In this document: piece by piece, positions 869 to 7,149 of the stretch | Layout: every line of letters begins with the position of its first letter | Position numbering within the stretch: position 1 is the first letter of the stretch | Origin: Candidatus Woesearchaeota archaeon | Lineage (GTDB): Archaea; Nanobdellota; Nanobdellia; Woesearchaeales; GW2011-AR4 | DNA: 64,000 nucleotides | Assembly: GCA_018303505.1 (NCBI GenBank) | Contig: JAGVYA010000020.1 | Span: 97-64,096 of the forward strand | Reading direction: 5' to 3' | The notes under the pieces: generated by a model | Seen by the model: the letters and a program-made list of their open reading frames with translations, nothing else | The model's database searches: none | Told to the model about the DNA's origin: nothing | Program-made: the position numbers and the translations under genes

Positions 869-1032
869 GGCGGCAAGGGAGAATCGAACTCCCGCCAAGC
901 GGGTACTGCATTCGGGACTGTGAGCTGGTGAGCGAGTTTCTCGCGAACCTCGCATGTCACTGTCCCGCAAGGTGTCAACGGACTTTGCCGTTGTTCCACA
1001 GCCGCCTATTCTGCCATTAAACTATTGCCACC
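869..1032 (-). tRNA. tRNA-His(GUG) with 92-nt intron at canonical 37/38
   Basis: Cloverleaf by eye. G-1 plus acceptor GTGGCAA/TTGCCGC with discriminator C. D arm GTTT-AATGGCA-GAAT. Anticodon stem GGCGG/CCGCT, anticodon GTG at 997-999. T arm GGGAG-TTCGATT-CTCCC. Intron about 904..995 has bulge GGA, 4-bp helix CTGT/GCAG, bulge TAC. CCA not encoded. Confidence 0.75.
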
Positions 1033-1125
1033 ATAGATATTAGGATATAAAATCAGATTATAAAGATTGTGGATTTAAATTTGAATAAAATTTATAAATA
1101 ATAAATATACATAAACAAGCTTTTT

Positions 1126-1200
1126 GAGGCAACCTGGGAGGTGATGCTCACTTCGGTGGGTGTTGCTTACAAGAATCTTCGGATTCAAAAATCCAGGCCT
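1126..1200. other. small GC-rich structured element with two UUCG-capped hairpins, function unknown
   Basis: CTCAC-TTCG-GTGGG and GAATC-TTCG-GATTC hairpins enclosed by CCTGG...CCAGG. Lies between tRNA-His and rps13. Confidence 0.25.
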
Positions 1201-1324
1201 AGACAAAAAAATCAGTAACCTTTTTAAATGACCATATTATCCCAATTCTATTGCCCGAGTTCATATAAGAGCGTTTCTAGGGTTTTAAAACACGATACGC
1301 TATTTTCTCGTGGCTTTATGTATT

Positions 1325-1373
1325 GGCGAGCAATGCGGCGAGCCTAAAATTTGTGCTGAAGGCACGGATTGAA
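1325..1373. repeat. short half-copy of the GC-rich intergenic repeat family (right-end module)
   Basis: ggcgag...aaaatttgtgctgaaggcacggattgaa matches the right ends of the copies at 4133, 25613, 31473 and 60552. Confidence 0.5.
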
Positions 1374-1398
1374 AATTCAAATTCAAAAATAATAAAAA

Positions 1399-1890
1399 AT
1401 GACTGAACCAGAGCAATCAAAGCAAGAACTAAAATATTTTGTAAGAATTGCGAACACAGACCTAGATGGAAATAAGCCTATTCAGCATGCTTTGATAAAG
1501 ATAAAGGGCATAAGCTTCATGTTTTCTAATGCTGTGTTGAATGTTGCGGATATTGAAAAAACCAAAAAGGCAGGCTACCTGGAGGATAATGAAGCAGCTA
1601 AAATTGATGAGGTTATAAAGGATCCTTCAAAGTTTGGAATTCCATCTTGGCTTTTCAACAGAAAAAGTGACCCTGAAGACAATACAAACAGGCACTTGAC
1701 AGGCCCGATTTTGACTTTCACCCAAGATAATGACATAAAAATGATGAAGAAGATAAAGTCATACAAAGGAATAAGGCACTCATTGGGGCTGCCTGTAAGG
1801 GGCCAAAGAACAAAATCAAACTTCAGGAAAAACAAAGGAAAGGTTATGGGAGTCAAGAAAAAAGAAGGCTCAAAAGCAGGAAGGGTATAA
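1399..1890 (+). CDS. rps13: 30S ribosomal protein uS13
   Basis: YFVRIANTDLDGNKPIQHALIKIKGI N-terminus and basic C-tail; position in the archaeal uS13-uS4-uS11-RpoD cluster. Confidence 0.95.
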   Translation: MTEPEQSKQELKYFVRIANTDLDGNKPIQHALIKIKGISFMFSNAVLNVADIEKTKKAGYLEDNEAAKIDEVIKDPSKFGIPSWLFNRKSDPEDNTNRHLTGPILTFTQDNDIKMMKKIKSYKGIRHSLGLPVRGQRTKSNFRKNKGKVMGVKKKEGSKAGRV

Positions 1891-1892
1891 TG

Positions 1893-2025
1893 CCGCAAAT
1901 CACTGAGATGCGAGTGAGCAGTGAATTTGCGAAAGCTCGACCTGCTTGCGAGAACGCGAGCTCGCGTTCAACTCTTTCGCTCGCTTATGTCACAGCGAAC
2001 TCGCTCACAATTGTCTGATTCGCGG
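1893..2025. repeat. nested GC-rich palindromic repeat in the rps13-rps4 spacer
   Basis: Outer arms ccgcaaatcactgagatgcgagtgagc / gcgaactcgctcacaattgtctgattcgcgg match the hairpin elements at 32551-32675 and 14691-14750. The 75-nt interior (1920-1994) matches the core at 22381-22445. Confidence 0.7.
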
Positions 2026-2055
2026 ACATTTCCAAAATCAGGAGATTTTTGAAAA

Positions 2056-2580
2056 ATGGGAGACCAAAAAAAACAAAGAAAGAAATTTACAACTCCAAGT
2101 CATCCGTGGCAGAAGGAAAGAATAGCTGCGGAAAAAGAAGTATTAAAGCAGTATGGCTTGCGAAGGAAATACGAAGTATGGAAAATGGATTCGATGCTTA
2201 AAAAATTTCTCCACAGGGCAAAAACAATTATCGGGGAAAGAACACAGCAGTCAGAGCTGGAAAAGAAGCAGTTATTGGACAGGCTCTATTTATTGGGTTT
2301 GCTAAAAAAAGACTCAAAGGTTGAAGATATCTTAAATCTTACATTAAAAAATATTCTGGAGAGAAGATTGCAGACATTGATATGCAGGAGACAAATGGCA
2401 AAAACTATGCTTCAGGCAAGGCAATTCATCACGCATGAGCATATAGCGGTTGGCAGCAAAAAAATAACAAATCCATCGTACCTTGTTTCAATTGAAGAAG
2501 AGCCTCAGATTAAACTGGTTCGTGCTATGCAATTAATAGATAATACAAAAGAGCAAAAAGCAGAAAAGGTAAACCAATAA
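2056..2580 (+). CDS. rps4: 30S ribosomal protein uS4
   Basis: [39 protein letters not shown] and an S4 RNA-binding region; cluster context. Confidence 0.95.
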
Positions 2581-2584
2581 TAAA

Positions 2585-2983
2585 ATGGAGCAGCGCCAAT
2601 CAAGATGGGGAATTGCGCATATTTATGCGTCATACAACAACACAATAATCCATATAACAGATATAACAGGAACTGAAACACTGGCTGTTGGAAGTGGCGG
2701 CATGGTTGTTAAGAGCGACAGAATGGAAGGCTCTCCAACTGCTGCAATGATTGCTGCAAAAAAAGCTGCTGAAATTGCAATGGACAAGGGCATAACTGGA
2801 ATTCATGTTAAGATAAAAGCTCCAGGCGGCCATAACGGACCGACTAGCCCTGGCCCAGGAGCGCAGGCTGCAATAAGGTCATTGTCAAGAATGGGGCTGA
2901 AGATTGGAATCATAGAGGAAGTAACGCCTTTGCCGCATGACGGCTGCAGAAAAAAAGGCGGCAAACGAGGAAGAAGGGTTTGA
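2585..2983 (+). CDS. rps11: 30S ribosomal protein uS11
   Basis: [27 protein letters not shown]...[11 protein letters not shown]; cluster context. Confidence 0.95.
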
Positions 2984-2995
2984 GCAGGAGGTAAA

Positions 2996-3793
2996 ATGGA
3001 AATAAGGGTTTTAGAAAATAACAAAGAGCAAGGCAAGCTTTCTTTTATTTTAAAAGATTCCATACCTGTTTTCGCAAATACCTTAAGAAGGCTCATGATA
3101 AATGAGGTTCCAACAATGGCTATTGAGAGTGTAACATTCTCAAAAAATAATTCAATACTTTATGATGAAATGATTGCTCACAGGCTTGGCTTAATTCCAC
3201 TAAAAACAGATTTGAAATCATATAACCTTCCGGATAAATGCAAGTGCGAAGGCAAAGGCTGCAACAGATGTCAATTAAAAATGGTGCTCAAAGCCACAAA
3301 AGGATCCGGCATAGTTTATGCTTCTGAAATCAAAAGCAAAGATCCAGCTGTGAAGCCAGTTTATGGGGATATACCTATTGTAAAGCTTCTAAAGGGCCAA
3401 ACTTTGGAATTAGAGGCTACTGCTGTCCTGGGCAGGGGAAAAGACCATATGAAATGGAGCCCATGCCATGCCTATTATAAGTACAGGCCAATCGTGGAGA
3501 TTACAGGCGAGGTAAAAAATCCTGAAGCCATAATAGAAGTCGACCACAATAACATCTTCGAGATAAAAGACAGAAAACTCGTGATAAACAAGGACAGGGT
3601 ACTAGATTGCGACTTGTCATTGGATTTTTCAGAGATAGACAAAGCTGTTAAGGTGACTGCAAGCGACACAGAATTTGTTTTTTATGTTGAATCATTTGGC
3701 CAATTAAGCTGCAAGGAAATCATCAACAAAGCCATTGACATATTTGACGAGCATCTCGATGAGTTCGTAGAAGAACTCAAGAAAGCAAAATAA
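2996..3793 (+). CDS. rpoD: DNA-directed RNA polymerase subunit D (Rpo3)
   Basis: FANTLRRLMINEVPTMAIESV, LGLIPL and a Cys cluster CKCEGKGCNRC; follows rps11 as in archaeal operons. Confidence 0.9.
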   Translation: MEIRVLENNKEQGKLSFILKDSIPVFANTLRRLMINEVPTMAIESVTFSKNNSILYDEMIAHRLGLIPLKTDLKSYNLPDKCKCEGKGCNRCQLKMVLKATKGSGIVYASEIKSKDPAVKPVYGDIPIVKLLKGQTLELEATAVLGRGKDHMKWSPCHAYYKYRPIVEITGEVKNPEAIIEVDHNNIFEIKDRKLVINKDRVLDCDLSLDFSEIDKAVKVTASDTEFVFYVESFGQLSCKEIINKAIDIFDEHLDEFVEELKKAK

Positions 3794-3811
3794 TCCCCCA
3801 ATGATAATTAT

Positions 3812-3943
3812 GCGGGGGTGGCAGAGCCTGGTCAATTTCCGCAAGGAAGGCCAAATGCACTAGGTTGAGGGCCTAGTCCAAATGCACTAGGTTGAGGGCC
3901 TAGTCCCTAAGTGGGTGCGCGTGTTCAAATCACGTCCCCCGCA
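3812..3943 (+). tRNA. tRNA-Leu(GAG) with 17-nt D-loop intron and an internal 27-nt tandem duplication
   Basis: Acceptor GCGGGGG/CCCCCGC plus A. D arm GCA..AGCCTGGTCAA..TGC. Anticodon arm CTAGG-TTGAGGG-CCTAG. Long variable arm CCC-TAAGT-GGG. T arm GCGTG-TTCAAAT-CACGT. Length is 132 nt against about 88 expected. The extra 17 nt are at about 3836-3852 and the extra 27 nt at 3880-3906. Confidence 0.75.
3853..3906 (+). repeat. perfect tandem duplication 2 x 27 nt inside tRNA-Leu
   Basis: aaatgcactaggttgagggcctagtcc at 3853-3879 and again at 3880-3906, duplicating the D-stem 3' strand and the whole anticodon arm. Confidence 0.95.
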
Positions 3944-3979
3944 TTTCAAAATTAAAATTATAAAAAACGAGATAAAAAA

Positions 3980-4133
3980 TCAATCCGTCGCTTCGCGACA
4001 AAAGTTACACTCGGCAAAAATTTTTCCTGCCAATAATTTTTGCCTCGTATTTATTCAATGCATGCACAGGCGAGCCCGAGTGATATGGCAGAGAAGCGAG
4101 GGCGAGCACAAAAATTTGGCGAAGCCGAATTGA
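3980..4133. repeat. full-length copy of the GC-rich TIR/hairpin element (MITE-like)
   Basis: Termini tcaatccg...cgaattga. Terminal hairpins GTCGC-TTC-GCGAC and GGC-GAA-GCC. Internal hairpin GGCAAAAATT/AATTTTTGCC. Colinear with 25457-25613 and 53442-53650. Confidence 0.75.
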
Positions 4134-4166
4134 AATTAAAAACAGATAATAAAACTTAAAATCAAA

Positions 4167-4532
4167 ATGTCAAAAAGAACTGGTCCAAGCAATCCAATAT
4201 TGCAAAATTTAATTCAAGAATTAAAGAAAAAAAGTAGAGAGCAGTCCATAAATTTATGGAAGCGAGTTGCGACTGATTTAGAGAAGCCTACAAGGCAAAG
4301 AAGGATTGTTAATCTTTCAAGCATAAGCAGATACACAAAGGAAAATGAGATTATTGTGGTGCCGGGAAAGGTTCTTGGAGCCGGTGTTTTAGAGCACAAA
4401 CTGACAATATCTGCTTTCCAGTTTTCAGATGGCGCAAAGGAAAAGATTGAGAAAGCTGGCGCAAAAATAGTTCCACTACTGGAATTAAGCAAAGAAAATC
4501 CAAGTGGAAAGGGAATAAGGATAATTGGTTAA
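4167..4532 (+). CDS. rpl18e: 50S ribosomal protein eL18 (L18e)
   Basis: NPILQNLIQELKKKS...WKRVATDLEKPTRQRRIVNLS...VVVPGKVLGAG; conserved position before rpl13. Confidence 0.9.
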   Translation: MSKRTGPSNPILQNLIQELKKKSREQSINLWKRVATDLEKPTRQRRIVNLSSISRYTKENEIIVVPGKVLGAGVLEHKLTISAFQFSDGAKEKIEKAGAKIVPLLELSKENPSGKGIRIIG

Positions 4533-4555
4533 AAGAAATTGTTTTAGGAAGAGAA

Positions 4556-4867
4556 GTGGAATTAGCAAAAGTCTTGCTTCAAAAGTTGATAGATTTGAGT
4601 TCATCATCAAAAGGGATTTCTGCGGTTGATTTATTGCATGCATCTAAAGATGGTTTACATGAAGTGGAGAATAGATATGAGAGATACGAGCATAGAGATG
4701 ATAGGCGCCTTCTAGATGATTATTATCAACTATTAGAAAAACTTGATAGGGCCAGATATATTGATGTTTCAGGAACGCCCCTCCGGGTGGTGTGGGGACC
4801 TGCGATATTGTCAATGCCCGAAGTTGCCAAAGAATTTTTTATAAAAACCTACTCGCCATCACATTAA
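4556..4867 (+). CDS. hypothetical protein (103 aa, GTG start) inserted between rpl18e and rpl13
   Basis: Track ORF. Locally GC-richer and not K/I/N-rich. No motif recognised. Confidence 0.45.
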   Translation: MELAKVLLQKLIDLSSSSKGISAVDLLHASKDGLHEVENRYERYEHRDDRRLLDDYYQLLEKLDRARYIDVSGTPLRVVWGPAILSMPEVAKEFFIKTYSPSH

Positions 4868-4868
4868 A

Positions 4869-5354
4869 ATGATAATCGACGCTAAAGACGCAATTTTAGG
4901 AAGGCTAAGCAGCTATGTTGCAAAGCAGGTTTTGCTAGGCAGCAAAGTAGATGTTATAAACTGCGAGGAATGTAGGCTAAGCAGCTATGTTGCAAAGCAG
5001 GTTTTGCTAGGCAGCAAAGTAGATGTTATAAACTGCGAGGAATGTGTTATTAGCGGAAGAAAACATGCAATATTAAATGAGTACATAAGAAGGCTTCATA
5101 GAAAGGCTCCAACAAAAGCTCCTTATTTCTACAGAAGGCCTGACATGCTTGTCAAAAGAACAATAAGGGGCATGATTCCATTCAAAAGAGCGAGAGGCAG
5201 GGACGCTTTCAAAAATGTAAAATGCTATATTGGCGTTCCTGAAAATTTAAAGAACGAAAAGGCTTTGACTGTTGGAAGCGCAGGGGTTGAGAAGCTGCAC
5301 TCTGCAGATTATTTAAAAGTCAAGGACGTATGCAAAGCAGTAGGCACAAAATGA
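4869..5354 (+). CDS. rpl13: 50S ribosomal protein uL13 carrying an in-frame 24-aa duplication
   Basis: MIIDAKDAILGRLSSYVAKQVLLGSKVDVINCEEC then RLSSYVAKQVLLGSKVDVINCEEC repeated, then VISGRKH...; uL13 N-terminal pattern. Confidence 0.9.
   Translation: MIIDAKDAILGRLSSYVAKQVLLGSKVDVINCEECRLSSYVAKQVLLGSKVDVINCEECVISGRKHAILNEYIRRLHRKAPTKAPYFYRRPDMLVKRTIRGMIPFKRARGRDAFKNVKCYIGVPENLKNEKALTVGSAGVEKLHSADYLKVKDVCKAVGTK
4902..5045 (+). repeat. perfect tandem duplication 2 x 72 nt inside rpl13
   Basis: Unit aggctaagcagctatgttgcaaagcaggttttgctaggcagcaaagtagatgttataaactgcgaggaatgt at 4902-4973 and 4974-5045. Confidence 0.95.
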
Positions 5355-6039: not shown

Positions 6040-7149
6040 ATGAACTCGCTTAAACATCAAAAAATTAAAACTAGAAATTATTATTTAAAAGGCCTAGAAA
6101 TTGGTAGGAAGTTTAGAAAGAAACAGCTAGAAGAATTTAGAAACGAAATTCCAAAAGTTAATGAACTTATTAAAGATAATTCCTTAAATTTCGAAAAATG
6201 GTTTGATTATTACCAAAAATTAATCAATTTTGGATGTAGAGAAATAAAAAGTATTGAAAGAGAAAACAATAAATTAAAAATTACATATACAAATTATGCT
6301 AATGGTAAAAAGAAATTATTCTCAACATTATTTCCTAGAAAAATAGAAATTGATGAAGATTTTTTATATTTCTTTGGTTTATGGGTAGGAGATAAAGCAG
6401 GTGGTGGAAGATTAGGTATTATGAATAAAAATAAAACAATTAACCTCTATACAGCACAATATTTAAGAAAACTTTTCCAGCAACCAGAATTCGTTTTACA
6501 TGTTCATGATAATAATATACCAAAATTAAGTTATAAAATCGATAAAATAGTAAGAATAAACAGCGTAAGGAATGGTTATTCTATTTCTGTTCATGCAACA
6601 AATAGTATGTTAAAATCATTTTTTGAATACCTAGAAACTGATTTGGATAGTTTTCTTAGTTTAGTTTCTAATAAAAATATTTTCTTTGCTGGACTCTTTG
6701 ATGCAGAAGGTAATGTGTTTTTGGAAGACAAATGCTTTAGATGGTCATCTAAGAATGAACGAAATATCGAGATTTTTACTAAACATCTCAAAGAGTTAAA
6801 TTTATTTAAAAGATTTGATGGTTGTAACTTAGTAACCTACAATAAAGAAATTTTCTTAAAGAAAATCCTACCCTACATAAAACATCCTCAAAAGATTAAT
6901 GACACAAACCTTATCCTATATAAGACAGGTACTTTGAGTATGAGATTTAATAGAATACTTAAATTCGTTAATGATAATCCAGGGAAAACTGCGAAAGAAA
7001 TTGCGAAAGCTTTAAAAATGGTCAAGGTCTACTCTCAGATAAAGTTCTTAGAATATTTAGAACTAATAAAAGCTGAGGATTATCCGCGTAAAATGTTTAT
7101 AACTAATAAAAGTTCGGGAGTATTGCTCCGAGGGGGGAAGGATTTATGA
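6040..7149 (+). CDS. free-standing double-motif LAGLIDADG homing endonuclease with C-terminal HTH-like region
   Basis: FFGLWVGDKAGG and FFAGLFDAEGNVF motifs. C-terminal GKTAKEIAKALKMVKVYSQIKFLEYLELI. Sits between rps9 and rpoN, which are normally adjacent. Confidence 0.8.
   Translation: MNSLKHQKIKTRNYYLKGLEIGRKFRKKQLEEFRNEIPKVNELIKDNSLNFEKWFDYYQKLINFGCREIKSIERENNKLKITYTNYANGKKKLFSTLFPRKIEIDEDFLYFFGLWVGDKAGGGRLGIMNKNKTINLYTAQYLRKLFQQPEFVLHVHDNNIPKLSYKIDKIVRINSVRNGYSISVHATNSMLKSFFEYLETDLDSFLSLVSNKNIFFAGLFDAEGNVFLEDKCFRWSSKNERNIEIFTKHLKELNLFKRFDGCNLVTYNKEIFLKKILPYIKHPQKINDTNLILYKTGTLSMRFNRILKFVNDNPGKTAKEIAKALKMVKVYSQIKFLEYLELIKAEDYPRKMFITNKSSGVLLRGGKDL

Follow-up and report, generated by a model that had tools for sequence, protein, structure and literature searches.

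Introns in the D-arm of archaeal tRNAs, at positions such as 20/21 and 22/23, constitute a documented class and have been described in Crenarchaeota, Nanoarchaeota and ARMAN-2. D-arm introns and several introns per tRNA occur in archaea with broad-specificity endonucleases, including a DPANN lineage (PMC4090602; PMC3239211). For metagenome assemblies produced with IDBA-UD and CLC, duplicate sequence at unmerged scaffold joins has been reported together with other local errors (Chen et al. 2020, Genome Res 30:315, PMC7111523). Both subjects are touched by a single tRNA-Leu(GAG) gene of a Woesearchaeota (DPANN) groundwater archaeon, located in the window, i.e. the whole analysed stretch of 64,000 nucleotides.

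The locus is flanked by rpoD and rpl18e. As read from the sequence, the gene is of class II and has the acceptor stem GCGGGGG/CCCCCGC, the discriminator A and the anticodon GAG. Divided into structural elements, the plus strand reads GCGGGGG-TG-GCAG-AGCCTGGTC-AAT-TTCC-GCAA-GGAA-GGCC-AAA-TGC-A-CTAGG-TTGAGGG-CCTAG-TCC-[AAATGCACTAGGTTGAGGGCCTAGTCC]-CTAAGTGGGTGCG-CGTGT…, with the 3' end CCCCCGC-A. The following features were assigned:

3812-3943, plus strand: tRNA-Leu(GAG) gene as assembled, 132 nt (sequence reading, intron-mode ARAGORN, orthologue alignment)
3812-3835, plus strand: exon 1, comprising the acceptor 5' strand, U8 and G9, the D-stem 5' strand GCA(G) and the D-loop through A21 (…GGTCAA) (alignment to 86-nt intron-less orthologues)
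3830-3833, plus strand: 5' strand GGTC of the central 4-bp helix of the bulge-helix-bulge (BHB) motif, exonic, pairing with 3849-3852; in orthologues the pair is U.G, C-G or U-A
3836-3854, plus strand: 19-nt D-loop intron at position 21/22, T-TTCC-GCAA-GGAA-GGCC-AA (sequence, orthologues, independent contigs)
3837-3848, plus strand: inner helix h' TTCC/GGAA with a GCAA (GNRA) tetraloop (sequence)
3849-3852, plus strand: 3' strand GGCC of the central 4-bp BHB helix, intronic (sequence, orthologues)
3853-3879, plus strand: copy 1 of a 27-nt unit, containing the last intron nucleotides, A22, the D-stem 3' strand, A26, the anticodon arm (anticodon GAG at 3867-3869) and the start of the variable region
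3880-3906, plus strand: copy 2 of the 27-nt unit, a perfect repeat, surplus and absent from independent assemblies
3907-3943, plus strand: remaining long variable arm, T arm (GCGTG-TTCAAAT-CACGT), acceptor 3' strand and discriminator A

In its true form, the gene most likely measures 105 nt, made up of an 86-nt mature tRNA and the 19-nt intron. It was missed in the 64-kb window by default ARAGORN, which called no tRNA at all, and by the Rfam tRNA model, the sole match of which was another intron-bearing tRNA at 869-1031. In the intron mode of ARAGORN, a tRNA-Leu(gag) was obtained at the locus with the extra sequence lumped as one 45-nt intron. Because the default ARAGORN and Rfam searches miss the gene, the orthologous tRNAs from 40 related genomes were collected by BLAST and gap-tolerant alignment to the 86-nt mature sequence. 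The other tRNA of the window (869-1031, minus strand; His, GUG by ARAGORN) has its intron, about 92-95 nt in length, in the anticodon loop or close to it, and most of the tRNAs that ARAGORN finds in the genome contain introns.

The D-loop intron and its relatives

The central helix GGTC (3830-3833)/GGCC (3849-3852) is formed by the pairs G-C, G-C, U.G and C-G. The bulges AAT (3834-3836) and AAA (3853-3855) lie on opposite strands, each 3' of its helix strand, and the inner hairpin TTCC-GCAA-GGAA (3837-3848) provides the helix h' within the intron. The helix, the two bulges and the hairpin had been described in the first-pass annotation and were recovered as such. The D-loop insert, for which 17 nt had been claimed, was corrected to 19 nt, the difference between the 105-nt single-copy gene and the 86-nt intron-less orthologues. 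The motif had also been called a textbook BHB. Strict geometry is indeed seen in the central helix, in the 5' bulge and in the inner helix. The outer helix h, however, is not continuous: six unpaired D-loop nucleotides (G13-U17a) face the 3' bulge and the D-stem pairing GCA/TGC is reached only beyond them. Since these six nucleotides oppose the 3' bulge, the motif is a relaxed one and not a strict hBHBh'.

Removal of 3836-3854 leaves the D-loop AGCCTGGTCAA followed by ATGC, as in the 86-nt intron-less orthologues; the spliced D-loop sequence GGTCAAATGC equals theirs. This product would require each of the 3-nt bulges to be cut behind its second nucleotide (AA/U and AA/A, the slash marking the cut). 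In the proposed pathway, the intron and exon of tRNA-Leu(GAG) would fold into the relaxed BHB made of GGUC/GGCC, the two bulges and the hairpin UUCC-GCAA-GGAA; the archaeal splicing endonuclease would cleave at both bulges as indicated, and ligation of the exons would probably restore the normal D-loop.

The same intron was found, identical, in 12/12 tRNA-spanning loci of independent assemblies of the same population. These loci represent nine distinct contigs, three of which appear twice. Three JGI contigs of a sister species, the flanking genes of which are about 80% identical, contain the identical 19-nt intron and a single anticodon arm. The D-loop site of the window is used in eight further orthologues (L006, L011, L012, L025, L026, L027, L029, L048), and at least eight species of the same genus (e.g. 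L002-L005, L007-L009, L014) have an intron-less gene of 86 nt with the D-loop …GGTCAAATGC…. Introns of 11-13 nt at position 37/38 were detected in L010, L013, L015, L016, L023, L026 and L029, and T-loop introns in L021, L024 and L030, the last of which also has an intron elsewhere in the D-loop, after G19. In the order as a whole, introns of tRNA-Leu(GAG) occupy at least four positions (21/22, after G19, 37/38 and the T-loop), with at most two per gene.

At the shared D-loop site, the central helix is GGTC/GGCC in the window, GGCC/GGCT in L006, GGTC/GACT in L011, L012, L026 and L029, and GGTC/GACC in L025 and L027. The changes are compensating, the pairs varying between U.G, C-G and U-A and between G-C and G.U. 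The inner hairpins resemble one another in neither sequence nor length, and their helices comprise 4-8 bp. The 5' bulge always begins with AA, which is exonic (A20b, A21), and its third nucleotide is variable; in the 3' bulge, the first two are variable (AA, AT, TC, CC, TG) and the third is invariably A, corresponding to A22 of the mature tRNA. This pattern of fixed exonic and variable intronic nucleotides fits cleavage after the second nucleotide of the bulge. In every case, intron removal gives the GG(T/C)CAAATG(C/A) of intron-less orthologues. An exact-pattern scan of the genome contig collection gave no match to the D-loop insert.

A gene for the splicing endonuclease was also identified in the genome. 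This open frame, some 204 codons long, scores 68 bits against PF02778 and 91.7 bits against PF01974 and encodes an EndA alpha-type subunit; it was the only alpha-like endonuclease gene detected. The reading as a BHB intron at a non-canonical position was thus upheld, and it was strengthened by the orthologue comparison. Judged from the sequence comparisons, the D-loop intron is real and belongs to a known type of non-canonical tRNA intron of archaea, here in a relaxed BHB form.

For work on how archaeal tRNA introns are gained and lost, the tRNA-Leu(GAG) genes of this genus offer a good natural series, as the close relatives have no intron, D-loop, 37/38 or T-loop introns, or combinations of these. 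A separate observation concerns the anticodon loop. U33 is almost universal in tRNAs; the tRNA-Leu(GAG) of L004, L009, L022, L046 and L047 has C at position 33 (loops TCGAGGG or CTCGAGG) and is otherwise intact.

The 27-nt duplication in one assembly

The perfect duplication of 27 nt (3853-3879 and 3880-3906), also reported in the first-pass annotation, was confirmed by Tandem Repeats Finder with 100% identity, a period of 27 and 2.1 copies over 3851-3906. The register of the array is ambiguous by 2 nt. As just two perfect arrays are present in 64 kb, this one and the 2 x 72 nt array at 4902-5045, a chance origin is negligible.

For comparison, contigs of independent groundwater metagenome assemblies were found by exact-protein look-ups of RpoD and L18e. 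The spacing between RpoD and L18e is 374 nt in the window and 347 nt in all the other assemblies. All 12 tRNA-spanning loci of the population contain a 105-nt gene which matches that of the window save for one copy of the 27-mer, and their flanks are 99.8-100% identical to the window. Scaffold L032 equals the window over 991 to 4534 except for the extra copy. The three sister-species contigs from JGI likewise have a single 27-mer. Taken as a proxy for sequencing reads, the assembled contigs thus show one copy in 15/15 independent cases. The duplication was found in 0/15 independent contigs (12 population loci and 3 from JGI) and in 0/30 orthologous loci, and exact-pattern scans of the metagenome and genome contig collections returned zero other records with the junction CCTAGTCC/AAATGCAC (3879/3880).

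The second copy is not the only peculiarity of this region. In comparison with every other assembly, the window differs at three places within 1.2 kb: by +27 nt at 3879/3880, -11 nt at 4534/4535 and +72 nt at 4973/4974. The two neighbouring features are:

4534-4535, plus strand: loss of 11 nt (TGGAAAAGCTG), which are present in 4/4 contigs of the same haplotype
4902-5045, plus strand: private perfect tandem duplication, 2 x 72 nt, within the uL13 gene (comparison with other assemblies)

The 11-nt loss deletes the ATG of the next ORF (114 aa, after rpl18e). It coincides with a branch point between haplotypes, and the contigs behind L032/L039 and L045 stop at exactly this site. The uL13 protein has 161 aa with a 24-residue repeat in the window versus 137 aa with one copy in 6/6 independent contigs covering uL13. 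An A/T SNP was found at 3909; the region is strain-variable and contigs of other assemblies break in it.

The segment of 327/338 nt between rpl18e and rpl13 (window 4535-4865) is a presence/absence polymorphism bracketed by TTAAAA. This cassette is present in L031, L034, L035 and L041 and absent from L033, L040 and L042-L044, and its 114-aa ORF had no Pfam match. Further along, downstream of rps9 across a short intergenic gap, lies an ORF of 369 aa (6040-7149, plus strand), which was also detected in the independent contig L040. It contains …FFAGLFDAEGNVF…, which we take to be a LAGLIDADG-like motif, and the ORF may encode a free-standing homing endonuclease.

Similar duplications were found throughout the genome. 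Perfect two-copy tandem duplications number 17 in total, their periods ranging from 15 to 72 nt, and 15 of them lie outside the window (C4:13236, C8:1978, C39:838, C49:462, C61:2140 and ten more sites, among them a 49-bp duplication at C66:41819). At least five of the 17 interrupt ORFs, and collapsing one copy restores a longer frame, for example 794 codons from 681 and 149, or 433 codons from 323 and 151. The 40-nt duplication at C4 splits GatD; it is absent from 5/5 independent scaffolds, all of which encode an intact GatD of 431 aa. The flanks of these scaffolds could be aligned over as much as 3.9 kb to one side of the duplication and 378 nt to the other, at 99.97-100% identity, with no mismatch in four scaffolds and a single mismatch in one.

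The first-pass annotation had left open whether the locus was a broken tRNA, an assembly or population artefact, or an enlarged intron. We consider it highly probable that the 27-nt duplication is an assembly artefact of this one genome, its absence from the source sample being deduced from the other assemblies. The case rests on three legs: the independent assemblies, the recurrence of the defect and biological implausibility. The second copy would be a local error of the metagenome-assembled genome and most likely originated when two overlapping assembly pieces were joined end to end with the overlap unmerged. The 72-nt duplication in uL13 is an artefact of the same kind. Three observations count against the artefact. 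The lengths of the duplications, 15-72 nt, fit no single k-mer size. In scaffold L032, the position of the 27-nt join is internal to a contig and not at its end. Both duplications of the window are multiples of three, as real in-frame variants would be, although the periods of 12 of the 17 duplications in the genome are not.

Two simple technical causes were discarded. The identity of the duplication length with the assembler k-mer was rejected as a simple explanation, the lengths of 15-72 nt having no common value. N runs with overlapping flanks were considered as a source of duplications; the genome has two N runs, neither of them flanked by an overlap.

Of practical relevance to users, this public Woesearchaeota genome, described as the representative of its species, carries spurious perfect tandem duplications which corrupt the tRNA, uL13, GatD and several other genes. 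In annotation, in tRNA inventories and in claims of pseudogenes or repeat expansion, the duplication sites should be collapsed or re-checked.

Readings with a genuine second copy

If the duplication were real, it could have broken the gene, leaving a pseudogene with two anticodon arms and the CUC/CUU codons to be read by another tRNA-Leu. A search for a second tRNA-Leu(GAG), proposed in the first-pass annotation, found none by intron-mode ARAGORN in the 1.3-Mb, 88%-complete genome; the same program called tRNA-Leu(aag) and tRNA-Leu(caa) genes elsewhere in it. These results favour the pseudogene. It is very improbable nevertheless, since the duplication is private to one assembly, where it stands alongside other gene-breaking duplications, and the gene is perfectly conserved without decay apart from the surplus copy.

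If the tandem duplication were real and had arisen very recently in the sampled strain, its other fate would be toleration, with the two copies pairing into a BHB at the canonical position 37/38. The outer helix would be formed by the 5' stem of copy 1 and the 3' stem of copy 2, and the inner helix by the 3' stem of copy 1 and the 5' stem of copy 2. The central helix would consist of U32-U33-G34-A35 against its own copy (U-A, U.G, G.U, A-U), flanked by the bulges GG/G and GG/G. This pairing is possible only because the U32-U33-G34-A35 segment is self-complementary. Excision of exactly 27 nt (3871-3897) would then yield a normal tRNA. A strict 3-4-3 hBHBh' can be drawn at 37/38 with the correct geometry and with cut sites one repeat period apart. 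The site is spliceable in this group, as related species carry introns of 11-13 nt there in the same tRNA, and a 2-nt microhomology (CC) where the repeats meet is compatible with slippage.

Against these points, the duplication was seen in none of the 15 independent contigs and in no other public record searched, and it co-occurs with other private, gene-breaking duplications in the same assembly. At -11.0 kcal/mol, the BHB conformer is also about 10 kcal/mol less stable than a competing fold at -20.8 kcal/mol, an extended helix containing a 3x3 internal loop. The placement is unremarkable as well: if 27 nt of the gene were duplicated at random, the whole anticodon arm would be included about one time in ten. 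A real duplication tolerated by copy-copy pairing is accordingly very unlikely, and that it is newly arisen and in fact spliced out at 37/38 appears more doubtful still. As the main explanation, a self-formed 37/38 BHB was demoted on the population and energy comparisons. If true, it would be a canonical tRNA intron caught in the act of being born by tandem duplication of an anticodon arm. Whether or not a real instance is at hand, the tandem repetition of an arm whose 32-35 segment is self-complementary can, on paper, imitate the splice motif, and this mimicry is testable in vitro.

The enlarged intron put forward in the first-pass annotation would extend from the 5' site in the D-loop to the second CC-AAA-TGC, removing the first anticodon arm. 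Its length is 46 nt (19 + 27) and not 44 nt as had been stated. The arithmetic works, as the removal of 19 + 27 nt gives an 86-nt tRNA, and the intron-mode ARAGORN result of one 45-nt intron points the same way. The U-U mismatch in the alternative central helix (GGUC versus GUCC), already recognised at that stage, speaks against it, the perfect first 3' site would compete, and such an intron was seen in none of the relatives or population contigs. This option is extremely improbable, and the excision of 27 nt at 37/38 is neater than it. Of the possibilities originally left open, the artefact thus gained support and the enlarged intron, without an orthologue or a population contig to match, lost it.

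Comparison with known introns and assembly errors

The D-loop intron resembles the catalogued non-canonical BHB introns in its 4-bp central helix, two 3-nt bulges on opposite strands, inner hairpin and location in the D-arm. It also shares with them the patchy distribution among close relatives, the presence of several introns in some orthologues and an endonuclease encoded in the genome. It differs in the discontinuity between the outer and central helices, which places the 3' bulge in an asymmetric internal loop (HBh'-like), and in its host, here a Woesearchaeota lineage.

In comparison with canonical hBHBh' introns at 37/38, the duplicated arm is alike in that it can be drawn as a strict 3-4-3 motif at a site where orthologues have introns of 11-13 nt. 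In contrast to it, the introns of the relatives are short and not exon-like, and the duplicated form is not the lowest-energy one and occurs in one assembly only.

The closest match of the 27-nt duplication is to the errors described by Chen et al. (PMC7111523). As in those, there are exactly two identical copies, absent from otherwise identical assemblies; the defect recurs across the assembly, breaks genes and lies in a strain-variable region where the contigs of other assemblers break. The difference is that Ns stand between the duplicated flanks in the published cases, whereas the copies in the window abut without an N.
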